The notes: generated by a model not told the origin, from the letters alone. A stretch of DNA of 64,000 nucleotides from an uncultured Dehalococcoidia bacterium (GCA_951812395.1 CATOSD010000001.1:1211108-1275107); one strand, 5' to 3'; shown: positions 2,613 through 56,206, counted from the stretch's first letter. A program made the numbers and translations.

Positions 2613-5263
<2,651 letters not shown>

Positions 5264-5267
<4 letters not shown>

Positions 5268-7719: not shown

Positions 7720-7747
7720 GCCAGACGCTGCGAGTGTTGACGCTGGG

Positions 7748-7805
7748 GTGACCGTCCGCCACGCCACCCCCATCCTAACCTTCCCCCTGCGAGGGGGAAG
7801 GGACT
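7748..7805 (+). repeat. family-1 REP-like hairpin repeat (ccccatcctaaccttccccctgcgagggggaagg)
   Basis: Intergenic. Perfect hairpin ccttccccc-tgcga-gggggaagg preceded by the conserved catcctaacc flank. Confidence 0.85.
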
Positions 7806-10542: not shown

Positions 10543-10580
10543 GCACCCCCGTCCTAACCTTCCCCCTCGCAGGGGGAAGG
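10543..10580 (+). repeat. family-1 REP-like hairpin repeat
   Basis: cacccccgtcctaaccttccccctcgcagggggaagg, lying between the Mo-hydroxylase stop and the HicB-like start. Confidence 0.85.
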
Positions 10581-12851: not shown

Positions 12852-12945
12852 GTCTACTCCTTAGACGTGATGGATTCGTGGTCCGGGGCGGCGACGCGAG
12901 GCCGTTAAAGGCGCGTGGGCGCCGCGAAGCAATCTTATCATACCC

Positions 12946-13002
12946 GTCACCCCCATCCTAACGTTCCCCCTTCGAGGGGGATGGGGATTTAGGTGGGGAA
13001 GG
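12946..13002 (+). repeat. family-1 REP-like hairpin repeat (variant)
   Basis: gtcacccccatcctaacgttcccccttcgagggggatgggg, abutting the ggt stop codon. Confidence 0.8.
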
Positions 13003-13003
13003 C

Positions 13004-14746
13004 CTACACGCCGTAATCGACGTCCTGGCGGGCGGGGCCGCCGGAGATGCCGACGGGAGCGCCGTCGGCGCGCCAGCACGCCGCGCCTTGGATGAGGCCG
13101 GCGGCGTGGTCGAACATCACGCCGTTCATGCCGCCCGCCACGCGGGCCACCACGCTCACGTCGTGGCCCTTTGCCGCGAGCGCCTCACCGGTGGCAGCGG
13201 ACACGCCCTCCTCGACCTCCACCTGCTGCCCCTGCGTCCAGATTCGTGGCGCCTCAACCGCTTCCTGGAGGGTCATGCCGTGGTCAATGACGTTCACGAT
13301 GGCCTGGAGCACGGACGCGAAGATGCGGGCGCCGCCGGGGGCGCCCAGGGCGAACAGCGGGCGCCCGTCCTGAAGCACGACGGTGGGCGACATGCTGGAG
13401 AGCATTCGCTTGCCCGGCGCGATCGAGTTGGCGGTGCCCGGGTGGGGGTCGAATATGTACATGTTGTTGTTCAGCAGCATTCCGGTGCCGGGCACGGTCA
13501 CTTTGGAGCCGAACGCCTCGTGAATGGTCTGCGTCATGGAGACGACGTTGCCGTCGCCGTCGGCCACTGTGAAGTGCGTGGTGTTGTTGGACTCCCCGAG
13601 CACCGCCGTAACCTCGCCCGGGGCGTAGGGGCGGGCGCGGTCCAGGTCGATTTCCGCCCTTCTGCGGTCGGCGTAACTTTTGGACGTGAGCCACTCGACG
13701 GGCACCTCTACGAAATCGGGATCGCCGAGGTACTCGAACCGGTCCGCAAATGCTATTTTGAGCACCTCTGCCAGTATGTGCGCGGACTGGCCGGCGCCAA
13801 AGCCCATCGCACCCACGTCGAACCCTTCCAGGATATTGAGAGCCTGGACTATGTGAACGCCGCCGGAACTGGTGGGACCCACCGCCACTATGTCCCGTCC
13901 GCGATAGTTGCCCCGCACCGGCTGGCGGTACTTGAGCTCGTAGCCGCGCAGGTCTTCCAGCGTGATGATGCCGCCGTTCGTGCGCATGTCCTCGGCGACG
14001 GTGCGACCGAGTTCGCCGCCGTACAGCTCGTCCGCGCCGTTCTCGGCTATGCGCCGCAGCGTGTGGGCGTAGTCCCTGCGCAGGATGGTCTGGCCCACGG
14101 CGGGAGGCTCGCCGTGGGGGAGGAACACCTCTTTCGTGGCGGGGAAACGCGCCAGATCTTCCTGGTTGTCGGCGATGATTTTCACCAGGTAGGCGCTCGC
14201 CGGAAAACCCCTGTCGGCGTAGCGAATGGCCGGCTGGATAACGGTGTCGAGGTCGAGCCTGCCGTATCTCTCCACGAGGTGGCACCAGCACTTGAGATTG
14301 CCGGGCACGCCCACCGCCAGGTATCCGAGGCGGTTCTTGCGTCCGGCGGCCTCCAGGTAGTCGGGCCAGGTGTTTGATACCGGCTCGTACATGCGATCGG
14401 TCGCCGCGGCGGGTGCGACGGCGTAGTTGTCTATGGTTATGGACTCGCCGGAGGATGCGTCGTGGTAATTCACCATGCCGGCGCCGAAGATGCCGACCAT
14501 CATCGGCTCTACCACGGTGAGGGCGAACGCGGTTGCCACGGCGGCGTCCACGGCGTTGCCGCCCATAGACAGAATCTCCGCGCCCGCGGCCGAGGCCATG
14601 GGGTGGTTGGAAGACACCATGCCGCGGGAACCGGCGGCGGCCCGTTTAAGTGGGACGAATGGACTGCCTGCACGCTCGCGCCAGCCGTTGTTCACGTGGA
14701 CACCTCGTATGTGGAGTATTGTGTGCCGATTGTACCATACGGGCAT
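13004..14746 (-). CDS. ggt: gamma-glutamyltranspeptidase
   Basis: 580-aa ORF. Motifs: GGNAVDAAVA, TTHFTVADGDGN (autoprocessing Thr), SSMSPT. The true start may be the internal ATG at 14620 (MVSSNHPMAS). No signal peptide is visible. Confidence 0.9.
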   Translation of the reverse strand: MPVWYNRHTILHIRGVHVNNGWRERAGSPFVPLKRAAAGSRGMVSSNHPMASAAGAEILSMGGNAVDAAVATAFALTVVEPMMVGIFGAGMVNYHDASSGESITIDNYAVAPAAATDRMYEPVSNTWPDYLEAAGRKNRLGYLAVGVPGNLKCWCHLVERYGRLDLDTVIQPAIRYADRGFPASAYLVKIIADNQEDLARFPATKEVFLPHGEPPAVGQTILRRDYAHTLRRIAENGADELYGGELGRTVAEDMRTNGGIITLEDLRGYELKYRQPVRGNYRGRDIVAVGPTSSGGVHIVQALNILEGFDVGAMGFGAGQSAHILAEVLKIAFADRFEYLGDPDFVEVPVEWLTSKSYADRRRAEIDLDRARPYAPGEVTAVLGESNNTTHFTVADGDGNVVSMTQTIHEAFGSKVTVPGTGMLLNNNMYIFDPHPGTANSIAPGKRMLSSMSPTVVLQDGRPLFALGAPGGARIFASVLQAIVNVIDHGMTLQEAVEAPRIWTQGQQVEVEEGVSAATGEALAAKGHDVSVVARVAGGMNGVMFDHAAGLIQGAACWRADGAPVGISGGPARQDVDYGV

Positions 14747-18389: not shown

Positions 18390-19571
18390 TTATACGTCGA
18401 CTTCCCTCAGAGCATTCGCCACTTCCTTACCCTTGTTCTGGAGAAACTCCTCCATCTTCTCATCTATCTTCTGGCGGATCTCTTCTTCATCGAGCTCATC
18501 GTAATCCTTCTTGGATAGCCAAGGAATTGAGAAGAAAGTGTGCCACTTCGACGACAACTTGGGCTTTGGCCGGCCGAATACTCTAGGCACGCTCCTTGCC
18601 TTAATGTACACCTTCTGCCGCAACTCCTGATTGCCTGGCCCTAAAATCACCTTGAGCCTGAGCCCGAAGTTTTCTCGATTTTCCAACTCACAAAGTACTA
18701 TCCGTTTGCTACTAGTCCATCCCGAACCCTCGTGAGGGAGGGAGTCCATGCAATGGGGTAAGAAGCGTATACAAGTCTTGCTGCTGTCGTCCGCAATCAG
18801 GTCGTCCCTTGAAGCGATGTAACCTTCTGTAATCTGGCGCACCTCGGCCGCGCGGTCCGGCCTGTTTTCGAAGATAAGGTCCAAGGCCTTACGGTGGTTC
18901 TTGTAGAGCCTGCGACAAAGCTCTTGGATTTCCGACTCTTCCAAAATGTACCTCCGCACCATGTCAATGTACTGCTGCACGAACAACCTAACATCGTCAT
19001 TGAGTTGGCTTTTGCGTCTTTCAAGGGCGTGTTCGACTATGCAGACCAGGTCTCTGTGACTCAGGCGGACATAGTTTTCGTCCGATGGGGGCTCACCAGA
19101 GACGGTCAGGAAGACAAACGCCTTCTTGTACTGACCAAAGGTTCCTTCGACGAATTCTCGGTATCGCTGAAGCTGATTGGCATGTTCGCCAGCGTCCACT
19201 TTGTTTTCAATGGCGCAAACGAAGAGATTGTCTTCATCTACGATTAACAGGTCGATGTTGCGCCATTCGCTGCGGACCTCCGCTCGGCCAAGGTTCCAGC
19301 CATCCAGATCGAACAGCGAAGGGAAGTCGTCGTGGTGGACCTCACCATCTTTGATTACCTTCAGGAGCAACTGGCGCAGCCAGTAATCGCCGAGGCCATG
19401 AGTCTCAGATGGGTCCAACAACCAACGGATGAAGGCGGAATGGCGAAGCTCCTGGCGAACGATATCTAGAGACGCAAACAGGTTGAATCGGTCAAGAGTT
19501 GCTTCTAGCTGTTCCAGGTCTGGGTTGTCATCAACAAAAGCCTTCAGCTCTTCAATATCGTTTCCGCTCAA
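18390..19571 (-). CDS. PD-(D/E)XK nuclease family protein (PDDEXK_4-like)
   Basis: 393 aa. N-terminal FNLFASLDIVRQELRHSAFIRWLLDPSETHGLGDYWL. Catalytic-type IDLLIVDEDNLFVCAIENKVDAGE (D...ExK). The DNA is visibly lower in GC than its flanks. Confidence 0.8.
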   Translation of the reverse strand: MSGNDIEELKAFVDDNPDLEQLEATLDRFNLFASLDIVRQELRHSAFIRWLLDPSETHGLGDYWLRQLLLKVIKDGEVHHDDFPSLFDLDGWNLGRAEVRSEWRNIDLLIVDEDNLFVCAIENKVDAGEHANQLQRYREFVEGTFGQYKKAFVFLTVSGEPPSDENYVRLSHRDLVCIVEHALERRKSQLNDDVRLFVQQYIDMVRRYILEESEIQELCRRLYKNHRKALDLIFENRPDRAAEVRQITEGYIASRDDLIADDSSKTCIRFLPHCMDSLPHEGSGWTSSKRIVLCELENRENFGLRLKVILGPGNQELRQKVYIKARSVPRVFGRPKPKLSSKWHTFFSIPWLSKKDYDELDEEEIRQKIDEKMEEFLQNKGKEVANALREVDV

Positions 19572-19621: not shown

Positions 19622-22600
19622 CTAGTGCACGGAGGCCAGCTCAGATACCACCCGCGCGCGGAACTTGGCGAGCCGGCCTAGGGCCTCGGCGAGAGCAGAC
19701 TCCCAGCCGGACGCGGCGCCGTCCACCCTCATGCGTAGCTGGGTGTCGCCCACCTCGACCGCGCGACCCACGGCGCGTTGGAGCGCGGGCCTCGCGCCAC
19801 CCACGCTGTCTTTCAGTTGGATGACGATCCGGTCGTCCTGGCGCGTGATGGCTACGACGCTGGCGTCGCGGGCGCTGAGCCTGAGCCGGGTCGCGTAGAG
19901 CAGGTTCTGGGCCTGCCAGGGGACCGGGCCGAACCGGTCTCTCAGTTCGTCCTCGACCTCGTCCACGTCCTCGAGCTTGGACAGGGCGGCCAGCCTGTGG
20001 TACAGGTCGATGCGCGCGGGCAGGTGCTCCACGTACTCCTCCGGCAGACTCACTGGTATGCCCAGGTCCAGCTTCGGGCCCTGCGCCGGCGGTTGGGCGG
20101 TGGCGAAAGGCCCGGACTCGCGTCCGATCTGCTCCGCTTCCGCGTCGCCGCTGCCGTTCCGTCCCGCGCCGCCCCCGGCGCGAAGCTCCTCGACGGCGTT
20201 GGATAGCAGCTGCGTGTACAGGTTGAAGCCGACGGCGTGGATGTGTCCGCTCTGCTCGGCGCCCAGGATGTTTCCAGCGCCCCTGATTTCGAGGTCCTTC
20301 ATGGCGATGCGGAACCCCGCGCTAAGCTCGGACGCCGCCAGCATAGCCCGCAGCCGCTTGTCCGCCGCCTCCGTGAGGCTGCGCGCTTTCGGCACGAGCA
20401 GGTAGGAGTACGCGCGGCGTGAGCCTCGGCCCACCCGGCCGCGAAGCTGGTAGAGCTGGGCCAGTCCGAACGCGTCGGCGCGATTGATTATCAGCGTGTT
20501 GACGTTCTGGATGTCGAGGCCCGACTCGATGATCGTCGTGCACACCAGCACGTCCGTCTTGCCCTCAGCGAAGTCCAGCATTGTGTTCTCTAGCTGGCCC
20601 TCGGCCATCTGCCCGTGGGCGACCCCGACCTCGGCCTCGGGCACGAGCCGCCGGATGTAGCCGGCCATGTAGTCGATGTTGTAAACACGGTTGTGCAGGA
20701 AGTAGACCTGTCCCTGCCGGTCTAATTCGCGGAGTATCGCCTCGCGCACCAGGTCCTCGCTGAACTCAGAAACGTAGGTCTTGATGGGCAGGCGCTCCTC
20801 GGGCGGCGTCTCGATGGTGCTCATGTCGCGCACGCCGGCCAGGGACATGTGGAGCGTCCGCGGTATGGGCGTGGCCGTCATGGTGAGCACGTCCACCTGC
20901 TCGCGCATCTGCTTCAGCCGCTCCTTGTGGGCCACGCCAAAGCGCTGCTCCTCGTCCACGACCACCAGCCCCAGGTTCTTGAAGCTCACGTCCTTCTGCA
21001 GCAGGCGGTGCGTACCAACGCAGATGTCCACCTCGCCCTCGACCAGCCGGCGCACGATGTCGCGCTGCTCGCGGTCGGTGCGGAACCGGCTGAGCGCCTC
21101 GATCCTTACCGGGTAGGCGCCCAGGCGCTGGGTGAACGTCATGTAGTGCTGTTGGGCCAGCACGGTCGTCGGCACCAGGATGGCGACCTGCATACCCTCC
21201 ATCACCGCCTTGAACGCTGCACGCAGCGCGATCTCCGTCTTGCCGTAGCCGACGTCGCCGCATATGAGCCTGTCCATGGGCTTGGCCGACTCCATGTCGG
21301 ACTTGACCTCGGAGATAGTGGATAGCTGGTCGGGCGTCTCCTCGAATGGGAATGACTCCTCCAGTTCGGCCTGCCAATGGGAGTCCGGGGCGAAGGCGTA
21401 GCCCTCCGACAGCTCCCGCGACGCGTACAGCGACAGCAGCTCGGAGGCCATCTCCCGTGTGGAGCGCTCAGCCCGCGCCTTGGCGCGCCGCCACTCCTGC
21501 GTGCCGAGGCGCGTGAGCGATGGCGGGCGGTCGAGCGGGGCCACATACGGGCCCACGCGGTCGAGATGCTCCATGGGCACGTACAGCTTGTCGCCCTGGG
21601 CGTACTGGAGCGTGAGGAATTCGCCTTCCTGGCCGCGCGGCCCCTTGCCGGCGCCGACGAATCTGCCGATGCCGTGCTCCACGTGTACCACGTAGTCGCC
21701 CGGGGACAGCTCGGACAGGAAGGCCGCCCGCCGCATCGTGTTGCGCCTGGCGGAGCTTCGGCGCTTGGCGACGCCGAAAACCTCGGTGTCGCTGAACACC
21801 ACTAGCTCGCCCGTCGGGGTGGAAAGGGTGAAGCCCTCCTGAAGCCCCGCGCCTTCCGCCTGGAGCACGCTTACCTTGCCGGGCGGCGTGTCGACGTCGA
21901 GGTTCGCGCCGACCTCCGCGTCCACTCCGTACCCGTCGAGTATCTCGCCCAGCCGCCTCGAGTGGGACGTGACGGCGACCACGCGCCGGTCGTTGGCGGC
22001 GAAGTCGTCCACGTCCTCGACAAAAGACTCGAGCTTGCCGTAGTAGGATGGCGCCTCTCCGAACGGCAGAACGTGCGAGGCTGCCTCGTCGCGCTCGCCT
22101 GCGGCGGACGGCTCCACGTCGAGCCGCCTATCGAATCGGTCCATCCGCTCCTCTACCTCGCGCCACGCAAAGTGGGACGACGGGAACAGCCGCGGTAGTT
22201 CGCCCCGCCCTTCCTTCGCCTCGCGCAGGTGCTCGGTGCGCTCCTCCACGTCCCACGCGGCGCCGGCGACGCGGGCGGGGCGCACCAGCACCAGCACGCT
22301 GTCGTCGGGCAGGTAGTCGAACAGAGAGCCGTGATTGAAGAAGCCTGCGTAGAATTCAAGCTCCTCCACGTCGTAGCCGTCCAGAAGCGCGTTGAATTCG
22401 TCCTGGAGCCGCTCGGCGGACGCCGAGGCGCAGTTGGAGACGTCGACGCGGCCCAGACGCGCGTCGAGCAGCTCGCGGGGTGTAAGGGAGGGCAGGGTCT
22501 CGCGCGCCGGTATGATGCCGACTCTCTCGACAGCGCGGGTGGAGCGCTGGGTGGCCGGATCGAACTCGCGGATAGTGTCGATCTCGTTGCCCCACAGCTC

Positions 22601-23197
22601 GATGCGGGCCGGGGCCTCCGCGCCGATGGGGAAGACGTCGATGATGCCGCCGCGGCGGCTGAACTGGCCCGGACCGACGACGGAGCTTTCGAAGCGGTAG
22701 CCGATGCGGCTCCACAGGTCCAGCGTCTCGTCGAGGTCCACGCTCTCGCCCTTCCGGATGTCGTGGCTGCTCTGCGAGAAGCTGCTCGTGTCCAGCGTCT
22801 TCTGCGTCGCCGCGGAGGCGGAGGCGATCACCGCGGGCGGGCGGGAGCCGTTTCCGGCGGTGTGGAGCGCCGCGAGGACGGCAAGACGCTGCTGGATGGC
22901 GCCGTCGTCCGAGGCCAGGCGCTCGAACGGCAGCGTCTCGGTCTCCGGGAAGTGAAGCGCGCAGGAATCGCCGCCCCACAACTGCATCTGGTCGTACAGC
23001 TGGCGCGCGTGCTCGGGAAGCGGCGCGACGACCACCATGGGCGCATCAAGTTCGCACCAGAGCTGGGCGAGCGCGAACGCTGCGGACTGTTCCGGTACGA
23101 TCACCTTGTCGTGGGTGTTGGGCTGCCGGAGCGAATCGCGCAGTTTCGCGAACTGCGGCGTGTCTCCAAGCAGCCGCCCCAGCGAGCTAAGCTTCAT
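19622..23197 (-). CDS. mfd: transcription-repair coupling factor
   Basis: 1191 aa. RNAP-interacting motif GDYVVHVEHGIGRF. Helicase motifs GDVGYGKTE, DEEQRFGV, TATPIPRTL. A TRG region is present. Confidence 0.97.
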   Translation of the reverse strand: MKLSSLGRLLGDTPQFAKLRDSLRQPNTHDKVIVPEQSAAFALAQLWCELDAPMVVVAPLPEHARQLYDQMQLWGGDSCALHFPETETLPFERLASDDGAIQQRLAVLAALHTAGNGSRPPAVIASASAATQKTLDTSSFSQSSHDIRKGESVDLDETLDLWSRIGYRFESSVVGPGQFSRRGGIIDVFPIGAEAPARIELWGNEIDTIREFDPATQRSTRAVERVGIIPARETLPSLTPRELLDARLGRVDVSNCASASAERLQDEFNALLDGYDVEELEFYAGFFNHGSLFDYLPDDSVLVLVRPARVAGAAWDVEERTEHLREAKEGRGELPRLFPSSHFAWREVEERMDRFDRRLDVEPSAAGERDEAASHVLPFGEAPSYYGKLESFVEDVDDFAANDRRVVAVTSHSRRLGEILDGYGVDAEVGANLDVDTPPGKVSVLQAEGAGLQEGFTLSTPTGELVVFSDTEVFGVAKRRSSARRNTMRRAAFLSELSPGDYVVHVEHGIGRFVGAGKGPRGQEGEFLTLQYAQGDKLYVPMEHLDRVGPYVAPLDRPPSLTRLGTQEWRRAKARAERSTREMASELLSLYASRELSEGYAFAPDSHWQAELEESFPFEETPDQLSTISEVKSDMESAKPMDRLICGDVGYGKTEIALRAAFKAVMEGMQVAILVPTTVLAQQHYMTFTQRLGAYPVRIEALSRFRTDREQRDIVRRLVEGEVDICVGTHRLLQKDVSFKNLGLVVVDEEQRFGVAHKERLKQMREQVDVLTMTATPIPRTLHMSLAGVRDMSTIETPPEERLPIKTYVSEFSEDLVREAILRELDRQGQVYFLHNRVYNIDYMAGYIRRLVPEAEVGVAHGQMAEGQLENTMLDFAEGKTDVLVCTTIIESGLDIQNVNTLIINRADAFGLAQLYQLRGRVGRGSRRAYSYLLVPKARSLTEAADKRLRAMLAASELSAGFRIAMKDLEIRGAGNILGAEQSGHIHAVGFNLYTQLLSNAVEELRAGGGAGRNGSGDAEAEQIGRESGPFATAQPPAQGPKLDLGIPVSLPEEYVEHLPARIDLYHRLAALSKLEDVDEVEDELRDRFGPVPWQAQNLLYATRLRLSARDASVVAITRQDDRIVIQLKDSVGGARPALQRAVGRAVEVGDTQLRMRVDGAASGWESALAEALGRLAKFRARVVSELASVH

Positions 23198-47233: not shown

Positions 47234-47313
47234 GTCACCCCCATCCTAACCTTCCCCCTGCGAGGGGGAAGGGACTTTCGAATCCTGACCTTCCCCTGCG
47301 AGGGGGAAGGGAC
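47234..47313 (+). repeat. family-1 REP-like repeat, two tandem hairpins
   Basis: gtcacccccatcctaaccttccccctgcgagggggaagggac, then ctgaccttcccctgcgagggggaagggac. Confidence 0.9.
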
Positions 47314-47330
47314 TATTGGAAAAAACCCCC

Positions 47331-48181: not shown

Positions 48182-48388
48182 GACAGATGGCGAGATTGCC
48201 GTCTGAAGCCGGATTGGTGGGGAGAAATTGAGCAGGCGCGGGGATGAGATTGGGCGTTCGTGGGGTTCGGATGGAGCACGGCCGGGGCACGGGTGGCGCG
48301 GGAGAGTGACGGTTTTTTTGGAGTACGAGGGGCGAATGGGGTCGGGCGTGGGCCAGAGGGCGCGTTCGGGGGGCATGGCTCTACGCGC

Positions 48389-48417
48389 TTGCCATCCCCC
48401 ACAACCCCCACTAGAAT
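48389..48417 (+). promoter_or_regulatory. TTGCCA-N17-TAGAAT promoter, 6 nt upstream of ATG 48424 (leaderless-type)
   Basis: Hexamers and spacing seen directly. No Shine-Dalgarno is possible in the 6 nt. Confidence 0.6.
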
Positions 48418-48423
48418 CCGCCA

Positions 48424-49782
48424 ATGAGCTCGCTTTCCAAATCCGGCCTTCCGCGTTGGCCGTCCTGGGCGGGCGGCAGCGACTTCCAGGGCCGCGCCGG
48501 GTCCGCCATCACGCACCCCGCGACCGTCGCGGCGCTGGGCGTGCTGTTGCTGAACGACCTGCTGTTCAAGTCGCTGTGGCCCCACTGGTGGCTCACCGGC
48601 AAGCTCAGCGACCTCGCGTGGGTGGTGTTCGCGCTTCCACTGCTGGCGTTCCTGCTTTCGTTCGCCGCGCGGCGGAACGTCCGCGCCTGCCGCCTGGCGT
48701 TCGTCGCAGCCTACGTTGGTCTGCCGCTCCTCTACGCCGCGTTCAACACGTTCGAGCCGGTGCACGACGTGATCATGCGCGGCATCTCGCTCGCGGGCGG
48801 CGCCGCCGGCTCCCCTCGGGACGCGACAGACTCGCTGGTCATCCCGCTCGCGTGGGGTGCGGCGCTGTGGGTATGGCGGAGGGAGGTGCCCGCTGCGGGC
48901 GCGATGCGGCTGCGGTGGGCGGTGCTGGTGGCGGGGGTGGCGGCGCTGGCGAGCGTGGCGACGAGCGAAAGTGGGCCAGTCTATGGTGTGCAGAGGATCG
49001 GCGTTTCTCATGACGGACTGGTTGTCGCCGACGTCGACTACGGTGGATTCTGGAGCCTGGACGGCGGCTTGACCTGGAACCCTATTGAACACCAACTTGG
49101 TGATATTGCTTGGGGAGATCAAGATGTGGAAACGCCCAGGGGCCGCTACATACTCGATGGGCCGCGTGTGCTGCGGGTCAGTGCCGACGGCGCCAAGGAA
49201 GAGGTCGTCTACTCCGCCGAGTACCTGAAACAGGACGGTAACGTCTGGGTCCAAACGGTCTCTACTGAGAGTCTCGGACGGCGAAGTATCGGAACCCAAC
49301 CGGTGGCGATGGTCTACGACGAACGGAGCGGCAATCTTGCGCTGGCAATGGGTATCCAGGGTGTGGTGGTCGGAACGCCAGATGGCCAATGGGTCCCCAG
49401 AACCGTAGCGCAATTCAAACCTACTGACTTCTCGCTCGAGACGAAGACACGGCTTTTGCTATTTGACTTCGATTTCCACACCTCAGTACTGATACTTGCC
49501 TTGGCGATGACAGGAGCAGCCTTCATAGCCTCCCAGCATAGGCGACAAGATTTGCTGAGGAGCGTACTCATTGCTCCCATCGCAGGAATTGCGGCAATGT
49601 TTATGGTGGGCACTCTTTTCTTGCTTCCTCTATATCTAGCACTCTTTGTTCCGCCGGTATCTAACGTACCTCAGACCGTCATAGTGCTCCTGGTGGTTCC
49701 ACTCGGATCGGGCTTCGTCATAGGCTCGGAAGCGCGACGAAGCGAATTTTGGAACATCGGCGTGATGGAGTTGGAATACTAG
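48424..49782 (+). CDS. multi-TM protein with central Asp-box (BNR) region, paralog 1 (N-terminal part of a split gene?)
   Basis: 452 aa. The first ~168 aa are nearly identical to the ORF at 50767. Asp-box SLDGGLTW at 49054-49077. The C-terminus has TM helices. Confidence 0.7.
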   Translation: MSSLSKSGLPRWPSWAGGSDFQGRAGSAITHPATVAALGVLLLNDLLFKSLWPHWWLTGKLSDLAWVVFALPLLAFLLSFAARRNVRACRLAFVAAYVGLPLLYAAFNTFEPVHDVIMRGISLAGGAAGSPRDATDSLVIPLAWGAALWVWRREVPAAGAMRLRWAVLVAGVAALASVATSESGPVYGVQRIGVSHDGLVVADVDYGGFWSLDGGLTWNPIEHQLGDIAWGDQDVETPRGRYILDGPRVLRVSADGAKEEVVYSAEYLKQDGNVWVQTVSTESLGRRSIGTQPVAMVYDERSGNLALAMGIQGVVVGTPDGQWVPRTVAQFKPTDFSLETKTRLLLFDFDFHTSVLILALAMTGAAFIASQHRRQDLLRSVLIAPIAGIAAMFMVGTLFLLPLYLALFVPPVSNVPQTVIVLLVVPLGSGFVIGSEARRSEFWNIGVMELEY

Positions 49783-49790
49783 CCATATCA

Positions 49791-50657
49791 ATGTCAGGCC
49801 TCTCAACTGCTTCTTTTGTTGTCTCATACGACGAAGGTAGCGGGTATCTTCGAGGTATGTTCCATCCACTCGATTCGGACCAAGTTTTGCCTTGGGTGTT
49901 GGCAGTAGCCTCCCTTGCCGTCTCTTGGCCGCTGCTATTGCGCCATTGGGTTGTGGTTGTTGCGTCCATCGTAGGGATGACAACCCTTGTAGTGATCGCA
50001 TTCTTACTGTGGCTTCACTTAGGCGTCAGTAACGAACTGACTCAGTTCTCGGCCATCGCCTTGAGCGGCGTGATAGCCATCCTGCTTGCCGTGCACCTAA
50101 GTCGTCGAACGCGGTTCGAGGGGAACCCATGTTGGGCCTGTGGGAAACCCACGATCGCTCTCTACACTGGATGCCCCAACTGCGGCGCTCTATTGATGGG
50201 CAGCGAAAAGGATCATCCGATGTCTTCACCTCTTGGCGCGTCAGTACAGGGGCGTTGCGCCAGTCTGGGACCTCGAATTCTTGCAGGTATGATGGACCTT
50301 TCGATTGTACTCATCGTGGTAGGGATCGGGTCTTTCATTGTGTGGTTCCTCGACTCGGGCATTTACCATATATTCGATCTCATCTCACATATTCTCTTCC
50401 TGTTGGCGTTTAGCCTCCTCTACAATCCGATTCCGGTGGGCAGATTCGCCGCCACCCCCGGCAAGCGCGCGCTCAAGCTCCGCGTGGTCAGGTCCAATGG
50501 CTCACGCGTCGGCTATCGACGTGCGCTCGTGCGAGAGCTCGCCAAGTTCGGCCCTCTACTGACGGTCAACGCAGTTGTGATGGCCTTCCGCTCCGACCGC
50601 CGCGGCCTACACGACCTGCTCGCGGACACCGTCGTGGTGCGGCTCGATGGTCAATAG
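49791..50657 (+). CDS. TM + zinc-ribbon + RDD-domain membrane protein (possible C-terminal part of paralog 1)
   Basis: The ORF is open from 49749; ATG 49791 lies 8 nt after the upstream stop. The N-terminal half aligns with the C-terminal 130 aa of paralog 2, including the ribbon CWACG...CPNCGA. The C-terminus has RDD-family features (RF...PGKRAL.L.VV, GLHDLLADTVVV). Confidence 0.7.
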   Translation: MSGLSTASFVVSYDEGSGYLRGMFHPLDSDQVLPWVLAVASLAVSWPLLLRHWVVVVASIVGMTTLVVIAFLLWLHLGVSNELTQFSAIALSGVIAILLAVHLSRRTRFEGNPCWACGKPTIALYTGCPNCGALLMGSEKDHPMSSPLGASVQGRCASLGPRILAGMMDLSIVLIVVGIGSFIVWFLDSGIYHIFDLISHILFLLAFSLLYNPIPVGRFAATPGKRALKLRVVRSNGSRVGYRRALVRELAKFGPLLTVNAVVMAFRSDRRGLHDLLADTVVVRLDGQ

Positions 50658-50731
50658 CCAAGTGTCGGGTTGTCAGTCTCCTCTCCCTCGAGAGCGAGTT
50701 GAGTCAGAATGGGGGTGAAGAGCCCCCACGC

Positions 50732-50760
50732 TTGCCATCCGCCGCACACGCGCCTAGAAT
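50732..50760 (+). promoter_or_regulatory. TTGCCA-N17-TAGAAT promoter, 6 nt upstream of ATG 50767 (leaderless-type)
   Basis: Duplicate of the 48389 promoter. Confidence 0.6.
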
Positions 50761-50766
50761 CCGCCA

Positions 50767-52518
50767 ATGAGCTCGCTTTCCAAATCCGGCCTTCCGCGTT
50801 GGCCGTCCTGGGTGGGCGGCGGCGACTTCCGGCGCCGCGCGGAGTCCGCGCTGACGCATCCCGCCACCGTCGCGGCGCTGGGCGTGCTGTTGCTGAACGA
50901 CCTGCTGTTCAAGGCGCTGTGGCCCCACTCGTGGCTTACCGGCAAGCTCAGCGACCTCGCCTGGCTGATACTCGCACTGCCGCTGCTTGCGTTCCTGCTC
51001 TCGTTTGCCGCCCGCGGCAGCCTCCGTGCTCGCAGGTTGGCGTTCCTGGTCGCCTACGCGGGGTTGCCGCTCCTCTACGCCGCGTTCAACACGTTCGACC
51101 CGGTGCACGACCTGATCATGCGCGGCATCTCCCTCGCGGGCGGCGCCGCCGGTTCCCCTCGCGACGCCACGGACTCCCTCGTCATCCCGCTCGCGTGGGC
51201 CGCGGCGCTGTGGGTGTGGCGGCGGGAGGTGCCCGCTGCGGGCGCGATGCGGCTGCGGTGGGCGGTGCTGGTGATGTGCTTTGCTGCGCTTGCGATAGGG
51301 TCGTCGTGTGAGAGAGAGCCGCTGTATGGGGTCAAGAGAATCGGCGTTTCCGGCGATGGAGCAATTGTCGTAGAGGCCGAATACGGCCCGTTCAAAAGCG
51401 TAGATGGCGGCATGACATGGAACACGAGTGAGGGGCTGTCAGGACCAGTTCATTGGGGCGGCGGAAGCGCGGATACTCCGTGGGGTCGTTTCGTGATCGA
51501 CGGCCCGCGTGTGGTCAGCGTAGGCGACGACCGAGTTGTCTACTCGACAGAGTACCTAGCAAGGGACGGCAACTTGTGGGTACAGAAGGTGTCGACTGAA
51601 AGGTTGAATTCGACGAGAGAGATTTCCCTCACTCCGAGAGGAATCGCATTTGACGACCAAAGTGGCAACTTGGTGCTGGCCCTGGGAATACAGGGAGTCG
51701 TGGTTGGGGCAGCCGACGGGGAGTGGCGGGCCATCGCCGTAGGCCCATTTGAACCGACCGAGTTTTCGTTAACTGGTAAGACGCTACTGCTGGTGACTGA
51801 TCTCAAGTTTTGGACGGCGACTTTGGCTCTAGCACTCTCCATGACTGGGGTCGGACTCATAGCATCCCGGTACCCGTGGCGGGTCTTACGGTGGTCGGTT
51901 CCTACCGCGCTGCTGTCAACAATCATGGCTATAGTGCTTTTGGTCAACATAGTCACGGGACCGAGGAATTCAATAGGAGACACCTTTGGCCTGCTCATCG
52001 CGCTATGTGTGCCCTTTGGTCCAATCGTGGTAGCCATTGCAGTCGACTCGACGCCCCGATACGGAAACATCCGGGCCCTGGCATCAATCAACGTTGCCGT
52101 TTTCCCACTTCTGGCCTCTGTAGTACTACTCTTCGCTTTCGGCTATTCAGACGACGAGCGCGGCGGAATCTCCGATCTCCTCATTTATGCTGTTTCGATA
52201 CTGGCCTATTTCCTAGTGGTTGTGTCGCTGTTGGTGTCCTGGGATCGGCTCAGGCGCTGGCCTCTGGTTATAGCGTCAGTTGCTGGCATGACGGTGCTCG
52301 TCACTCTAGTGTTCATGTTGTGGTTGCACCTGAGCGTCGATGAAATTGTGACCAAGTCCGCTACGGTCGCGCTATGCGGAGTCGCAGCTGGCATTCTTGC
52401 CGGATACATAGGTCACACAACTCCGGTGGAAGTGGGGTCATGCTCAACCTGCGGAAGTTTCGTTTTGGCTTCAGAAAGGCAGTGTAACGATTGCGGAGCG
52501 TTGCAAACTCAAGACTGA
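50767..52518 (+). CDS. multi-TM protein with central Asp-box region and C-terminal zinc ribbon, paralog 2
   Basis: 583 aa. Asp-box SVDGGMTW. C-terminal ribbon CSTCGSFVLASERQCNDCGA. Confidence 0.75.
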   Translation: MSSLSKSGLPRWPSWVGGGDFRRRAESALTHPATVAALGVLLLNDLLFKALWPHSWLTGKLSDLAWLILALPLLAFLLSFAARGSLRARRLAFLVAYAGLPLLYAAFNTFDPVHDLIMRGISLAGGAAGSPRDATDSLVIPLAWAAALWVWRREVPAAGAMRLRWAVLVMCFAALAIGSSCEREPLYGVKRIGVSGDGAIVVEAEYGPFKSVDGGMTWNTSEGLSGPVHWGGGSADTPWGRFVIDGPRVVSVGDDRVVYSTEYLARDGNLWVQKVSTERLNSTREISLTPRGIAFDDQSGNLVLALGIQGVVVGAADGEWRAIAVGPFEPTEFSLTGKTLLLVTDLKFWTATLALALSMTGVGLIASRYPWRVLRWSVPTALLSTIMAIVLLVNIVTGPRNSIGDTFGLLIALCVPFGPIVVAIAVDSTPRYGNIRALASINVAVFPLLASVVLLFAFGYSDDERGGISDLLIYAVSILAYFLVVVSLLVSWDRLRRWPLVIASVAGMTVLVTLVFMLWLHLSVDEIVTKSATVALCGVAAGILAGYIGHTTPVEVGSCSTCGSFVLASERQCNDCGALQTQD

Positions 52519-52577: not shown

Positions 52578-53942
52578 CTATCCCTCTACCTGAGGCAATG
52601 GGGACTGGTCGGCGCCGCCCTTCCCCTCCCCCCACCAACGCCGCATCCGCTGCGCCACTTCGCGCTCGTAGCCCTGGTCGCTCGCGTCGTAGTAGCGGCG
52701 ACCCGCCAGGCTGTCCGGCAGGTTCTGCGTCGGGGTGAAGTGTCCCTCGTACTCGTGGGCGTAGCGGTAGCCCTTGCCGTAGCCCATGTCCTTCATCAGG
52801 CCCGTCACCGCGTTGCGCAGGTGCAGCGGCACAGGCTCGTTGCGAGTCTCGCGCACGTCCGCCATGGCGCGCTCGATGGCCGAGTAGGCGGCGTTGCTCT
52901 TGGGCGCCGTCGCCAGGTAAACCGTCGCCTCCGCGAGCGGGATGCGCGCCTCGGGCATGCCGATGAAGTGCACCGCCTGCTGCGCCGCCACCGCCACCGT
53001 CAGCGCCATGGGCGCCGCCATGCCTATGTCCTCGGCCGCCAGCACGACAAGCCGCCGCGCCACGAAGAGCGGGTCCTCACCCGCCTCCAGCATCCGCGCC
53101 AGCCAGTACACCGCCGCGTCCGGGTCGGACGCCCGTACCGACTTGATGAACGCCGAGATTGTGTCGTAGTGAAGGTCGCCCGCCTTGTCGTGGCGCAGCG
53201 AGCGGCGCTGCATCGCCTCCTCGACCACCGATTGCGTCACGAGCCGCGCGCCGTCCGCGTCCGGGGGCGTGGCGGACACCGCGAGCTCCAGCGCGTTGAG
53301 CGCCGAGCGCGCGTCGCCGTTGGCCAGGTTCACCAGGGCGGCCAGCCCCTCGTCGTCGAGCGCGGCGTTCAGCCCGCCGAGTCCACGCTCGCGGTCCGTC
53401 AGGGCTGACGCGACGATGCCGGCCACCTCGTCGTCGGTGAGGGACTCGAGCGCGAACACCCGCGCCCTCGAAAGCAGAGGCGACACGACCTCGAACGACG
53501 GATTCTCCGTGGTGGCGCCGATGAGGGCGAAGGTGCCGTCCTCGACGTAGGGAAGGATGACGTCCTGCTGCGCCTTGTTGAAGCGGTGAATCTCGTCCAC
53601 GAACAGCAGCGTGCGCTCGCCGTGCGCGCCCAGCCGCTCCCTGGCCTCCGCGGCAATGCGCCGCAGGTCGGCCACGCCCGACGCCACGCCGCTGACGCGC
53701 TCGAAGTGGCTCCTGGTCTGGCCGGCTATCAGCGTGGCCAGCGTGGTCTTGCCGGCGCCGGGCGGCCCCCACAGGATGACGGACGGGAGCCGGTCGGCCT
53801 CGATGCTGCGGCGGAGCACCGACTCGGGGCCGACGACGTGACTTTGCCCCACGAACTCGTCGAACGTGCGGGGACGCATCCGCGCGGCCAGCGGGGCGCC
53901 GGTAGCGAGTTCGCGCTTTGCTCTGTCCTCGAACAGCGTCAA
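52578..53942 (-). CDS. rarA: replication-associated recombination protein A (AAA+ ATPase)
   Basis: 454 aa. PLAARMRPRTFDEFVGQ, Walker A GPPGAGKTT, LFVDEIHRFNKAQQD, C-terminal MgsA domain YLARML. Confidence 0.93.
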   Translation of the reverse strand: MTLFEDRAKRELATGAPLAARMRPRTFDEFVGQSHVVGPESVLRRSIEADRLPSVILWGPPGAGKTTLATLIAGQTRSHFERVSGVASGVADLRRIAAEARERLGAHGERTLLFVDEIHRFNKAQQDVILPYVEDGTFALIGATTENPSFEVVSPLLSRARVFALESLTDDEVAGIVASALTDRERGLGGLNAALDDEGLAALVNLANGDARSALNALELAVSATPPDADGARLVTQSVVEEAMQRRSLRHDKAGDLHYDTISAFIKSVRASDPDAAVYWLARMLEAGEDPLFVARRLVVLAAEDIGMAAPMALTVAVAAQQAVHFIGMPEARIPLAEATVYLATAPKSNAAYSAIERAMADVRETRNEPVPLHLRNAVTGLMKDMGYGKGYRYAHEYEGHFTPTQNLPDSLAGRRYYDASDQGYEREVAQRMRRWWGEGKGGADQSPLPQVEG

Positions 53943-53980
53943 ACCTTCTGCCTCACAAGTCCCTTGCCCCTCGCTCGATA

Positions 53981-54024
53981 GTCCCTTCCCCCTTGCAGGG
54001 GAAGGTTAGGATGGGGGTGACGGT
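53981..54024 (-). repeat. family-1 REP-like hairpin repeat (reverse orientation)
   Basis: agtcccttccccc-ttgca-ggggaagg-ttaggatgggggtgacgg. Confidence 0.85.
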
Positions 54025-54030
54025 CGCTCC

Positions 54031-54720
54031 CTAGTTGCTGCGGTTGGTGGGCAGGAACGGGAGCAGGATGCTGGCTAGCGACTGGACGTTGCGTGTCTGA
54101 ATCCACACGTTGCCGTTGCCGCGGAACTTCATCACCAGACCCTCGCCGCCGGCAATCAGCGAGCGGATTCCGCCCACCTTGTCCACGGAGTACTCCACGT
54201 CGTCCGAGAACGCCACGAGGTGGCCGGTGTCGATCACAAGCTCCTTGCCCGGCTGCACGCGCACCTGCTTGATCGCGCCGTACGAGGTCACGTACACCGT
54301 GCCGGAGCCGCCCTTGGAGAAGGCCCGCAGGAAGAAGATGCTTTCTCCGCTGAACATGCCCCTGAGTCCCTGGAACTGCGTGTCGGTCTCCACGTTGTCG
54401 GTGGATGCCATGTAGGACGTGCCCTGGATGAACAGGCTTTTGCCCGGGTCCAAGTGGAACGAAGCGATGTCCCCCGGTGTGGACGGCGCGAGACTCACCC
54501 AGCCACCGCCGCGCTGGGCGGTGAAGCTGTTGACGAAGAACGACTCGCCGCCGAGCATTCTCTTCAGGCCGCCCATTATGCTGCCGGAGCCCATGCCCGT
54601 GGTCATGTCCACGCCCTCCTGGGCCACCATCGCGCCCGGTTCGGCCTTGATGACCTCGCCCGGGTCGAGCTCCAGTGTCAGCAGTGTGTAGCTTGGGTCG
54701 TATTCTATGGTAGGTCTCAC
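54031..54720 (-). CDS. TIGR00266/AIM24 (DUF124) family protein
   Basis: 229 aa. L.L.L.PGE.I.AE.GAMV at the N-terminus, and the later GEG.....F.G.G.VW.Q pattern. Confidence 0.8.
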   Translation of the reverse strand: MRPTIEYDPSYTLLTLELDPGEVIKAEPGAMVAQEGVDMTTGMGSGSIMGGLKRMLGGESFFVNSFTAQRGGGWVSLAPSTPGDIASFHLDPGKSLFIQGTSYMASTDNVETDTQFQGLRGMFSGESIFFLRAFSKGGSGTVYVTSYGAIKQVRVQPGKELVIDTGHLVAFSDDVEYSVDKVGGIRSLIAGGEGLVMKFRGNGNVWIQTRNVQSLASILLPFLPTNRSN

Positions 54721-54799: not shown

Positions 54800-56206
54800 T
54801 TAGTTCCCCAGCGCCCCCACCAGTCCGGCGAGCAGGGCGTCGTCCTCGTCCTCCAGCACCGTGCGCGGGTCCAGCAGCAGCGCGTCGCGCTCCACACGCC
54901 CGATCACCGGCGGGTCCGCCGCGCGCAGACGCTCGGCCAGTCGCGCGGCGTCAACGCCGGACACTGACAGCGCCCACGTCGGCAGGGTTTCGCCTGGCAG
55001 ACTGCCGCCGCCGATGGCGGACGTCGACTCGAGGACCCGCGCGTCGCCCGGCTTGCCGGCCAGCGCGCGCCTCCACCGCTCAGCCCTGGCGCGGATGTCG
55101 TCCGGCTTCGCGCCGATCATGCACCACACCGGCACTTCGCGCTCGGCCTCGCCCTTGACGTAGTGGAGCAGCGTCGAGTTCAGCGCCGCCATGCTCAGCT
55201 TGTCGATGCGCACCGCACGCGCCAGCGGATGGCGAGACACGATGTCCAACATACGACGGCTGCCGGCGATGATGCCCGCCTGTGGCCCGCCCAGCAGCTT
55301 GTCGCCGGAGAAGAACATCACGTCCACGCCCGCAGCGGCGCTCTCCTGCGGCATCGGTTCGTGCGCCAGGCCGAACGGCTTGGTGTCCAGCAGGCAGCCG
55401 CTGCCCAGGTCGTGGAGCACGGGAACGCCACGCCTGCGGCCTATCTGCGCAAGCTCGGCTATGCCGGGCGAGTGGGTAAATCCCATCACGCGGAAGTTGC
55501 TCGCGTGGACAAGCAGCAGCGCGCCGGTGTCGTCGCCGATGGCGTCCTCAAAGTCGCGTGCGTAGGTGCGGTTGGTGGTGCCGACCTCGACGAGCTCCGC
55601 GCCGCTCTGCCTCAGCACGTCGGGAATGCGGAAGCCGCCGCCGATCTCCACGGCCTCGCCGCGCGAAACTATCACCTGCTTGCCGGCCGCGATGGCTGCC
55701 AGACCCAGCAGCACGGCGGAGGCGTTGTTGTTCACGACCGTCGCCGCCTCTGTGCCGGTCAGCTCGCAGATGTGACGCGCGACCGCCGCCTGACGGGAGC
55801 CGCGCCGTCCGGTGGCAAGGTCCAGCTCCAGGTCGCCAAAGCCCGCGGCGGCCTCTCGCACCGCGTCCGCCGCCGCGGCGCTGAGTGGCGCGCGCCCCAG
55901 GTTGGTGTGGAGTACCACGCCCGTGGCGTTGATCACGCGGCGGGGCCAGGTAGCGAATCGCGACCGTGCCTGCGCCGAGACCTCGCCCGCCAGTTCGTCG
56001 AGACCGGGAGCGTCGTCGCCGTTCTCCGCGATGCGCCGCCTTGCGACGGCGAGCCGGTCCCTCACCAACTCCAACACCGCGCGCCGCGAGTAGGCTCGCG
56101 ACAGCGCATCCACGCGCGTGTCGCTCATCACCCGGTCGACGCTCGGCAGCGCCCTGAATCGCGATGCCATCCTCATCCCCCGTGCGAAAGTGTCGCACAC
56201 CTCCAA
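54800..56206 (-). CDS. selA: L-seryl-tRNA(Sec) selenium transferase
   Basis: 468-aa ORF. VINATGVVLHTNLGRAPLS, VVNNNASAVLL, VSRGEAVEIGGGFRIPDV, FSGDKLLGGPQAGII. The start could be ATG 56176 or 56170. Confidence 0.9.
   Translation of the reverse strand: MEVCDTFARGMRMASRFRALPSVDRVMSDTRVDALSRAYSRRAVLELVRDRLAVARRRIAENGDDAPGLDELAGEVSAQARSRFATWPRRVINATGVVLHTNLGRAPLSAAAADAVREAAAGFGDLELDLATGRRGSRQAAVARHICELTGTEAATVVNNNASAVLLGLAAIAAGKQVIVSRGEAVEIGGGFRIPDVLRQSGAELVEVGTTNRTYARDFEDAIGDDTGALLLVHASNFRVMGFTHSPGIAELAQIGRRRGVPVLHDLGSGCLLDTKPFGLAHEPMPQESAAAGVDVMFFSGDKLLGGPQAGIIAGSRRMLDIVSRHPLARAVRIDKLSMAALNSTLLHYVKGEAEREVPVWCMIGAKPDDIRARAERWRRALAGKPGDARVLESTSAIGGGSLPGETLPTWALSVSGVDAARLAERLRAADPPVIGRVERDALLLDPRTVLEDEDDALLAGLVGALGN

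Follow-up and report, generated by a model that had tools for sequence, protein, structure and literature searches.

Shared 5′ module and variable bodies in a tandem pair of Skillet-3 Lipocone genes from an uncultured Dehalococcoidia bacterium

The Lipocone superfamily, which comprises 30 computationally defined families with Skillet-3 among them, is predicted to act on phosphate-linked lipid head groups (Burroughs, Nicastro & Aravind, eLife 2025, PMC12419801; below, Burroughs et al., 2025). In the Skillet families the active site was assigned to an Asp in helix H2 together with a DxxD motif at H4, and an ExxQ motif in H3 "largely" unites these families (Burroughs et al., 2025). Within the published Skillet-3 network, β-propeller repeats C-terminal to the Skillet-3 domain are the commonest architecture (268 of 683 cases), Skillet-3 adjoins Skillet-3 at 35 loci, and no zinc ribbon, RDD domain or second multi-transmembrane block is recorded; RDD is the commonest membrane partner of VanZ-1 (Burroughs et al., 2025). 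The ectodomains fused to Skillet-3 show "extreme variability", for which the authors propose an arms race, possibly evasion of phage attachment (Burroughs et al., 2025). The nearest relatives of Skillet-3 that have been studied experimentally are VanZ/Llp1 and YfiM, Ca-dependent lipid-linked-oligosaccharide pyrophosphatases, an activity demonstrated for YfiM and reported for VanZ/Llp1 (bioRxiv 10.64898/2026.09.16.752124). Here we describe two tandem genes, A and B, in a 64-kb stretch of DNA from an uncultured Dehalococcoidia bacterium (GCA_951812395.1, CATOSD010000001.1:1211108-1275107; the whole stretch is called the window, and positions are counted from its first letter). Probably, the locus is a Skillet-3 pair with a 5′ module that evolves in concert and bodies that are exchanged in a modular way, encoding a presumed lipid-head-group enzyme under frequency-dependent selection.

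Family membership and architecture of the tandem pair

A and B are paralogues of one polytopic membrane-protein family, the long form (A) lying upstream of the short form (B). The open reading frames (ORFs) at 48424-49782 (452 aa) and 50767-52518 (583 aa) are both present as an earlier note on this DNA had listed them, and no further copy of the family, promoterless fragments included, was found within the window. A hidden Markov model (HMM) built from 30 published Skillet-3 members (Burroughs et al., 2025; E-values at Z=1e6) covers residues 31-153 of A and B over its full length (model positions 1-121 of 121), with 77 and 74 bits, respectively, and matches no other ORF in the window. Profile-profile comparison with hhalign gives a probability of 99.7% (E=8.7e-26, 121 columns), against 0.1% for a control with the second block of transmembrane (TM) helices. 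Among the supplementary sequences of PMC12419801, the invariant motif TGKLSD is found 166-176 times in the Skillet-3 file and essentially nowhere else. In a set of 78 homologues, which also underlies the structure model and the conservation and Pfam scans reported below, residues N44, D45, K49, G59, K60, S62, D63, D133 and D136 are invariant, and the putative active-site Asp in H2 (D63, in TGKLSD) and the DxxD at H4 (D133/D136) align with the published GKLSD and DPTD motifs. By these profile and motif matches the N-terminal module (residues 31-153) of A and B is assigned to the Skillet-3 family. The earlier note could place the architecture in no named family; the HMM and hhalign results supply one for the N-terminal module, and it is not a well-characterised family, since Skillet-3 is defined only computationally. 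The parts of the two genes are as follows.

48424..49782, + strand: gene A, first frame, with Lipocone domain, TM5, Asp-box ectodomain and ~3 TM helices (by comparison with the homologous protein P0009)
48514..48882, + strand: Skillet-3 Lipocone domain of A (residues 31-153), by sequence match; motifs HP..NDxxxK, TGKLSD and DATD; HMM 77 bits, E=8e-20; hhalign 99.7%
48964..49443, + strand: variable, predicted extracytoplasmic β-rich domain of A with Asp-box SLDGGLTW (homology to the structure model of B; BNR match)
49762..49768, + strand: frameshift site in A, one base missing (three-frame translation against intact orthologues)
49749..50657, + strand: gene A, second frame (A2), with the remaining TM helices, C4 zinc ribbon and RDD domain
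50121-50192, + strand: four-cysteine (C4) zinc ribbon of A2, CxxC...CxxC (weak Pfam zinc-ribbon matches)
50259-50624, + strand: RDD domain of A2 (PF06271)
50767..52518, + strand: gene B, intact short form, 583 aa (structure model, mean pLDDT 82.6)
50857..51225, + strand: Skillet-3 Lipocone domain of B (residues 31-153), by sequence match; HMM 74 bits, E=5e-19, full model length; hhalign 99.7%
51307..51771, + strand: variable, predicted extracytoplasmic β-rich domain of B with Asp-box SVDGGMTW (modelled strands at 189-323, ~12-13 strands, with the look of a partial β-propeller; weak propeller matches only)
51802..52419, + strand: second membrane block of B, seven modelled TM helices (residues 346-551); least conserved part of the family
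52429..52515, + strand: C-terminal C4 zinc ribbon of B, CxxC...CxxC, predicted cytoplasmic

An AlphaFold2 model of the gene B product, computed with the 78 homologues as input, has a mean predicted local distance difference test score (pLDDT) of 82.6 and reaches ~90 for the ectodomain and most TM helices. The N-terminal helices are placed at residues 32-51, 56-81, 86-109, 136-152 and 158-178, with a short helix (111-123) in the H3-H4 loop and an H1-H2 linker of 4 residues; the Lipocone paper describes helical handles in the H1-H2 and H3-H4 linkers. After TM5 (158-178) come a β-rich region (189-323) that carries the Asp-box, seven long helices (346-551) and a small C-terminal ribbon, and the model thus agrees with the architecture that the earlier note had read as an N-terminal TM module, an Asp-box segment, more TM helices and a C4 ribbon. 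The alternation of Arg/Lys-rich loops (positive-inside rule) suggests that the N-terminus and the ribbon are cytoplasmic and the β-rich domain lies outside. Across the family the order is Lipocone domain, one TM helix, Asp-box ectodomain, seven TM helices and C4 ribbon, to which the long form adds RDD: residues 171-292 of A2 match PF06271 with 72.8 bits (gathering cutoff 24.1, E=4.4e-20), and gene B is without RDD. The homologues number more than 426, are nearly all unnamed, come from Chloroflexota/Dehalococcoidia metagenome assemblies and measure either ~560-600 aa, in which case they lack RDD, or ~720-750 aa, with RDD.

Each protein has a single Asp-box (SxDGGxTW), which at 12 bits lies under the Pfam BNR threshold of 27. 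The best Foldseek matches of the B model are propellers, at E≥0.16, and its ~12-13 strands are too few for a closed propeller; against PDB and BFVD, no Foldseek match reached E≤0.001, and none was to a solved Lipocone structure. A sequence-profile search of PDB gave matches at the Asp-box level only (sialidases, xyloglucanase, weak; E≥0.017). Pfam zinc-ribbon models match 7-14 of the 78 family members (DZR 14, Zn_Ribbon_1 9; best E=2.5e-13), and the conserved motifs of the bodies, that is, of everything after the shared 5′ part, are the Asp-box, NVWVQ and GIQGVVVG. When A, A2 and B were compared with the Pfam, NCBIfam, PADLOC and PHROGs libraries, only RDD, sub-threshold Asp-box and zinc-ribbon matches, and noise were returned, with no match to any PADLOC or PHROGs model. 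Three other candidate assignments were set aside: matches to Acyl_transf_3 in 8 of the 78 homologues (best E=6e-5) are not localised and were taken as hydrophobic noise; 7TMR-type matches are isolated (7TMR-DISM_7TM in one member, 7TM-7TMR_HD on gene A); and a resemblance to LspA-like or DUF2809-like motifs was superseded by the Skillet-3 assignment, the corresponding Pfam models having no match.

In gene A, a frameshift interrupts what is otherwise a long form. Three-frame translation against intact orthologues, which are single ORFs of 729-737 aa (723-749 aa among intact long-form relatives), shows one base missing near 49762-49768; the best relative of A, P0009 (737 aa), runs unbroken across this position, and A2 aligns to the C-terminal part of the long forms P0002, P0009 and P0020. 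The first unit of the earlier note therefore exists as an ORF (48424-49782) but is not the whole gene, which continues in another frame as ORF 49749-50657. The frameshift may be either a true disruption or an assembly error.

The shared 5′ module and exchange of the bodies

For comparison we used fifteen loci from other assemblies (L001-L015); W denotes the window, W_A and W_B its two genes and W_A2 the second frame of A, and P-numbers denote homologous proteins. The syntenic locus, flanked in several assemblies by ChsH2/thiolase genes on one side and MgsA/AIM24/SelA on the other, was found in the Dehalococcoidia metagenome-assembled genomes (MAGs) L003, L004 and L005 and in the ENA contigs L001 and L008. 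L001, L003 and L004 have a tandem pair, long form then short form, as in the window, and L005 and L008 have a single copy each. In their housekeeping flanks the window and the syntenic genomes share 88-94% identity, with a synonymous divergence (dS) of the thiolase of 0.27-0.35 (0.33-0.35 for the genomes that share the tandem pair), and L001, L003, L004 and L005 share 92-98% among themselves. L002, which covers only the MgsA/SelA side of the locus, is a close strain of the window organism; most of its downstream flank differs from the window at 0-1 positions per 100 nt (~99.5% identity).

The conserved 5′ parts of A and B align without gaps over 545 nt (48386-48930 versus 50729-51273) at 88.1% DNA identity, and comprise 38 nt upstream of each ATG and codons 1-169. 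In 60-nt windows, identity within this module is mostly 0.83-0.97, with a dip to 0.68-0.80 near 48610-48700, and from ~48940 on it is 0.28-0.72, mostly 0.45-0.65. At the protein level A and B are 87.6% identical over residues 1-169, 53.5% over 170-345 and 30.4% over 346-447. The earlier note had described the first ~168 aa as almost identical, with ~35 nt of promoter included, and a strong divergence after ...MRLRWAVLV. The shared module and its upstream stretch, 38 nt of which fall within the 88.1% block, are real, "almost identical" overstates 88% DNA and 87.6% amino-acid identity, and the break after ...MRLRWAVLV, found at ~48940 in the nucleotide alignment, is sharp. The module and its promoters are located as follows.

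48386..48930, + strand: conserved 5′ module of A (promoter and codons 1-169), 88.1% identical to 50729-51273; dS 0.30, GC content at third codon positions (GC3) 0.91
50729..51273, + strand: conserved 5′ module of B, the same block; holds the right end of a recombination tract relative to L002, with 3-18 mismatches per 100 nt
48389..48417, + strand: promoter of A, TTGCCA-17 nt-TAGAAT
50732..50760, + strand: promoter of B, the same TTGCCA-17-TAGAAT arrangement

An identical promoter arrangement precedes all ten copies of the window and L001-L005, and also the L008 copy. Its −10 box ends 6 nt 5′ of the ATG, and with no Shine-Dalgarno sequence present the mRNAs are probably leaderless.

Several lines of evidence bear on how the modules have remained alike. 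Between W_A and W_B, dS (Nei-Gojobori) is 0.30 over codons 1-169 and rises to 2.2 in the ectodomain and to saturation in the second TM block, with a ratio of nonsynonymous to synonymous divergence (dN/dS) of ~0.2 throughout. The proportion of synonymous differences (pS) is 0.25 in the module and 0.71-0.76, that is, saturated, in the bodies; since saturation at a GC3 of 0.91 is estimated to lie at a pS of ~0.58, the synonymous sites of the module are well short of it. The modules of W_A and W_B are 88.6% identical to each other, against 80.7-84.7% to their positional orthologues, and the tandem pair is older than the split from L001, L003 and L004. Indeed, the first 15 residues and a "REVPAAG" segment are common to both paralogues of the window and L002 and differ in the other genomes, and the first nine residues of L001 are likewise common to its two paralogues. 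In the pairwise homoplasy index (PHI) test on 11 modules, the index is 0.437 against 0.495±0.009 in 2000 permutations (p<0.0005), and 46% of informative site pairs are incompatible. The nearest neighbour of a module switches from block to block across the A/B divide; L001_A, for example, is 95% identical to L004_B. Furthermore, W_B and L002_B have identical bodies and modules that differ at 46 sites, at 44 of which W_A has one of the two alleles, in alternating runs. Together, these sequence patterns support homogenisation of the 5′ module by gene conversion between the slots and by homologous recombination between genomes, and they point to repeated short-tract conversion within a shared pool of module variants rather than to slow evolution alone. 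The dS contrast, the greater closeness of paralogues than of orthologues, the PHI test and the shared polymorphisms thus bear out the suggestion of gene conversion in the earlier note. Conversion and recombination hold all module copies within ~80-95% identity and at native codon usage.

The bodies have a different history. Between the window and L002, the body of B shows 0-1 mismatches per 100 nt, its module 3-18 (8-18 over 50866-51165) and the RDD 3′ end 9-32; gene A upstream of the RDD 3′ end, at ~50 mismatches per 100 nt, is a different allele. From this profile, one recombination event replaced the A body, with its right end inside the B module. A second exchange is seen between species:

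49050..49310, + strand: recently exchanged ectodomain tract of A, 4 mismatches in 261 nt relative to L004_A

This tract is 98.5% identical in W_A and L004_A, with 54-87% identity on either side, and the housekeeping genes of the window and L004 are ~90% identical; at 10% divergence such a tract has P=4e-8. From the second TM block through RDD, L001_A, L003_A and L004_A share 99-100% identity, and the ectodomain of L004_A differs by 30-40% from those of L001_A and L003_A. The TM/zinc-ribbon segment of W_A2 is closest (65%) to short forms (L004_B, P0014), not to long forms. The crossovers sit in three blocks of family-wide conservation, namely the Lipocone module, the linker GNL..GIQGVVVG..DG.W and the 3′ end of RDD. 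As judged from these alignments, the ectodomain and the TM2/zinc-ribbon/RDD segments are deeply diverged allelic classes with saturated dS, which reassort among strains, across species ~10% apart and from one slot (A or B) to the other. Of the cassette-like diversification that the earlier note proposed as a possibility, reassortment of segments at the population level thus stands, and a programmed intragenomic cassette system finds no sign. Silent copies are absent from the window, no reverse transcriptase of a diversity-generating retroelement (DGR) and no invertase is among the genes called at the locus or in its syntenic relatives, and a repeat search made no relevant find; because no silent cassettes, reverse transcriptase or invertase were found, we regard the exchange as a population-level process, not a programmed one.

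Elsewhere in the comparison with L002, patches of 8-15 mismatches per 100 nt occur at 54865-55464 (selA), 53066-53165 (mgsA region) and 54065-54164 (AIM24), in surroundings that mostly have 0-1. From their profile these appear to be ordinary recombination patches in a population that recombines freely.

Disrupted copies are frequent (4 of 11 examined). W_A and the L005 copy have frameshifts; in L001, two DDE_Tnp_1 transposase genes of insertion sequences (IS) at 11239-13845 split the short paralogue (L001_B) into ORFs of 288 and 272 aa; and in L003_B codon 278 (~10130) has changed from CAG to TAG at the Gln of the conserved NVWVQ motif. As the last change is a substitution, it suggests a genuine pseudogene rather than a long-read indel error. 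No homopolymer or repeat tracts, which would be a sign of phase variation, were found at the disruption sites.

The occurrence of the family was followed beyond the syntenic loci. An exact promoter-pattern scan of JGI metagenome contigs gave 0 matches and a protein scan of these contigs 7 distant loci only; a scan of IMG/VR viral contigs found no relatives, the fold search of BFVD with the AlphaFold2 model gave no significant match, and a literature search on hypervariable membrane proteins of Dehalococcoidia found nothing. Among more distant genomes, L006 carries a tandem family pair (3015-7734; 505 and 577 aa) directly 3′ of an N6_N4 methyltransferase/ThaI restriction gene. In L007, an RDD-only ORF of 180 aa (5380-5922), whose end is 61% identical to that of W_A2, lies immediately 5′ of a long-form gene and is likely a remnant of another long copy. 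About 90 database entries are short ORFs (100-284 aa) with the Lipocone module alone, two of which (P0121 and P0156) come from one 3.7-Mb chromosome, OZ245405, the genome of L005; this suggests that these genomes hold more, often truncated, copies elsewhere.

Two further features of the window were recorded. A 20-22 nt intergenic repeat, CCCTGCGAGGGGGAAGGGAC, is dispersed over it (7785-7804, +; 10555-10574, −; 47256-47275, +; 47294-47313, +; 53981-54000, −), with 5 copies observed against 0.01 expected, and resembles repetitive extragenic palindromic (REP) elements. Inverted 22-nt repeats at 47256-47316 and 53975-54000 were considered as the ends of a mobile element and rejected, for the repeat is dispersed across the window and the interval holds housekeeping genes; the CCCTGCGAGGGGGAAGGGAC copies bracket the A/B region by chance. 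A second low-GC patch (18390-19571, −; GC 0.57-0.59) encodes a PD-(D/E)XK nuclease (PDDEXK_4), adjoins mfd/TRCF (19622-23197) and is probably another accessory gene.

Base composition, possible function and alternative explanations

The break in identity coincides with a step in base composition, as the earlier note had observed for the lower-GC bodies. GC content is 0.69-0.745 in the modules and 0.50-0.60 in the bodies, and GC3 falls from 0.91 in both modules to 0.56-0.69 in the bodies, nine flanking genes having values of 0.82-0.92; the GC profile drops at the breakpoint and goes back to high values at the 3′ end of RDD, a stretch conserved among alleles. Along the window locus, GC and between-genome conservation are correlated (Spearman rho 0.65, p=2e-6). 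The step is present in L001, L003, L004, L005, the single-copy L008 and the more distant L006, L007 and L009, and is weaker in L011/L012 and L015. In hosts with a locus GC of 0.57-0.67, body GC3 is 0.55-0.65, and Lipocone GC3 tracks the host (0.76-0.95).

We infer from this pattern that the bodies may form a shared pool that moves between lineages, with the module resident and ameliorated to its host; local AT-biased decay is an equally live reading, and both can hold, since they are not mutually exclusive. Under decay, GC-biased gene conversion (or selection for GC) would no longer reach alleles too diverged to recombine, and these would drift towards the AT-biased mutational equilibrium. The correlation of GC with conservation along the locus, the step even at the single-copy locus L008 and the regained GC of the conserved RDD 3′ end all argue for it; body segments do recombine between lineages, however, and the near-constant body GC3 across hosts in which the module follows the host fits a shared pool at least as well; we put forward local decay only tentatively.

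By analogy with the superfamily, the Lipocone domain would form a four-helix membrane cone with its conserved polar residues turned toward the outer leaflet, and would act as a divalent-cation-dependent enzyme that cleaves or transfers phosphate-linked head groups of outer-leaflet lipids. Polyprenyl-pyrophosphate-linked glycans would be the likeliest substrates, as for the relatives VanZ/Llp1 and YfiM. Asp-box domains are typical of glycan-binding or glycan-processing propellers, and the variable Asp-box ectodomain could set the ligand or glycan specificity, or the regulation, of the enzyme as a swappable part, with the seven TM helices, zinc ribbon and RDD presumably coupling it to the cytoplasm. 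Cell-surface genes engaged in an arms race typically show such a pattern. Loci of this kind are usually driven by phage pressure, and allelic diversity may be kept by frequency-dependent selection from phages or other envelope-recognising agents. With saturated dS and a dN/dS of 0.15-0.4 in the variable parts, the bodies look like old alleles under frequency-dependent selection, not like products of rapid positive selection. It is conceivable, if somewhat doubtful, that the module is the resident recombination anchor of a two-slot locus at which populations trade ectodomain and TM-RDD modules across species, retuning the glycan or ligand of the enzyme under phage pressure.

Several points weigh against this interpretation of the locus. 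The substrate and activity of Skillet-3 and the role of the ectodomain are extrapolated from superfamily membership alone. The ExxQ motif is not evident in H3, where the family has ..YAAFNTF[ED]P.. (F-N-T-F-[ED]); published Skillet-3 sequences are likewise without ExxQ, mostly having ..F.LVKT.. (V-K-T) at its position, and the motif therefore seems not to define Skillet-3 itself. The N-module is the most conserved region family-wide, so stronger constraint explains part of the contrast between module and bodies, and the Nei-Gojobori method (NG86) underestimates dS at a GC3 of 0.91. The dN/dS of 0.15-0.4 shows old maintained alleles under purifying selection, with no detectable positive selection. 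The GC3 step is absent from the distant Skillet-3 genes L010, L013 and L014, and the step, where present, does not separate a circulating pool from AT-biased decay. No phage, defence or glycan-synthesis genes are conserved beside the locus. Finally, the frameshift of A could be an assembly error.

Other explanations were weighed against the combination of a concerted module and exchanged bodies. Purifying selection alone, acting on an old duplication with a slow catalytic module and a fast remainder, would make do with neither conversion nor exchange. It draws on the high conservation of the N-module among the 78 homologues, on a dN/dS that nowhere reaches 0.3 and on the compression of synonymous distances by a high GC3. 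Constraint on a protein, however, cannot keep a dS of 0.30 beside a saturated one or render paralogues closer than orthologues; the non-coding 38 nt upstream are equally similar, and the 46% of incompatible site pairs, the significant PHI and the 98.5% tract between genomes 10% apart would be left unexplained. We consider this account improbable. Decay of another kind, in which relaxed constraint has left the bodies as non-functional remnants and the pattern is without adaptive meaning, is very unlikely: the dN/dS of the bodies is 0.15-0.4 even between saturated alleles, the ectodomain and most TM helices are modelled with confidence (pLDDT ~90), the Asp-box, NVWVQ and GIQGVVVG are conserved, and hundreds of homologues of 550-750 aa are intact, all of which stands against the disruption of 4 of 11 copies and the atypical codon usage that speak for remnants.

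Constant 5′ and variable 3′ parts in tandem, in copies that are often switched off, also recall programmed intragenomic variation, be it an expression locus with a donor (pilE/pilS-like), a shufflon, a phase-variable pair or a DGR target. Each copy, however, has its own complete promoter and start codon; the 64 kb contain no more copies or promoterless fragments, and the locus and its syntenic relatives no invertase, reverse transcriptase or template repeat. The copies were broken by an IS insertion, by a nonsense substitution and by indels that lie outside homopolymers or repeats, and differences in the variable parts affect 40-70% of residues along their whole length instead of being confined to targeted sites; we regard a programmed system as extremely unlikely. 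Just as hard to credit is an artefact of assembly or binning through chimeric MAG contigs or collapsed repeats. All sequences are indeed metagenome assemblies, and two 545-nt modules are repeats able to mislead an assembler, but the modules are only 88% identical and easily resolved, the breakpoints fall at domain boundaries, and several independent assemblies, in some cases with contigs of 0.15 to 3.7 Mb, have the two-gene layout, promoter, breakpoint and GC step in common.

Significance and relation to known systems

The family name, the variability of the ectodomain and the arms-race theme are already published, and the locus is not a new kind of system; new here are the extension by seven TM helices, a zinc ribbon and, in the long form, RDD, the tandem arrangement of a long with a short form, and the evolutionary anatomy. 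The breakpoints, the concerted module, the 260-nt interspecies tract, the replacement of an allele between near-identical strains and the knock-outs provide direct population-genetic evidence for what has been an arms-race guess. The RDD-bearing long form links Skillet-3 to the enigmatic RDD domain, which is otherwise tied to VanZ. The locus may serve as a natural experiment on what Skillet-3 enzymes recognise, with ectodomain alleles set against strain envelope glycans or phage host range. As an intragenic case of the rule of a GC-rich core and GC-poor variable parts, it could help to separate GC-biased conversion from pool composition, and if populations do trade modules here, the intragenic GC3 step would be a general signature for finding exchange loci in uncultured bacteria.

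Helicobacter babA/babB and Neisseria opa are paralogous surface families with interlocus gene conversion, which encode outer-membrane adhesins of host-associated bacteria and often undergo programmed phase variation. Like them, the family described here has paralogues with common conserved 5′ regions, variable exposed regions, mosaic alleles and frequent loss or switch-off; unlike them, its conserved part is a predicted enzyme domain within a polytopic membrane protein of free-living uncultured Chloroflexota, and it has no phase-variation tract. Rhs genes have a GC-typical conserved core, a sharp breakpoint and lower-GC hypervariable 3′ parts that are replaced by recombination, and O-antigen wzy genes, at an envelope locus that varies between strains, encode highly diverged polytopic membrane proteins and are low in GC. 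In contrast to Rhs/CdiA, there is here no toxin/immunity pair, orphan tip or secretion-system context, and in contrast to wzx/wzy, no glycan-synthesis cluster surrounds the locus.

Closer at hand, VanZ-RDD fusions, VanZ/Llp1 and YfiM belong to the same superfamily, VanZ in the same VanZ-Skillet clade, and are similarly membrane-embedded with an acidic active site at the outer face. VanZ is, however, another family with another motif set, and the Pfam VanZ and DUF2809 models have no match here; in VanZ-RDD, moreover, RDD directly follows the Lipocone domain, whereas here it comes after the ectodomain, seven TM helices and zinc ribbon. With Skillet-3 itself (Burroughs et al., 2025) the pair shares the HP..ND..K, TGKLSD and D(P/A)TD motifs, the combination of Lipocone, TM and extracellular ligand-binding domains, and the occurrence of tandem genes. 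The intragenic GC3 step, the concerted Lipocone module and the segmental exchange between species are not described for Skillet-3 in that work, and unlike in the published Skillet-3 proteins, a seven-TM block and a C4 ribbon are here constant and RDD marks the long paralogue.

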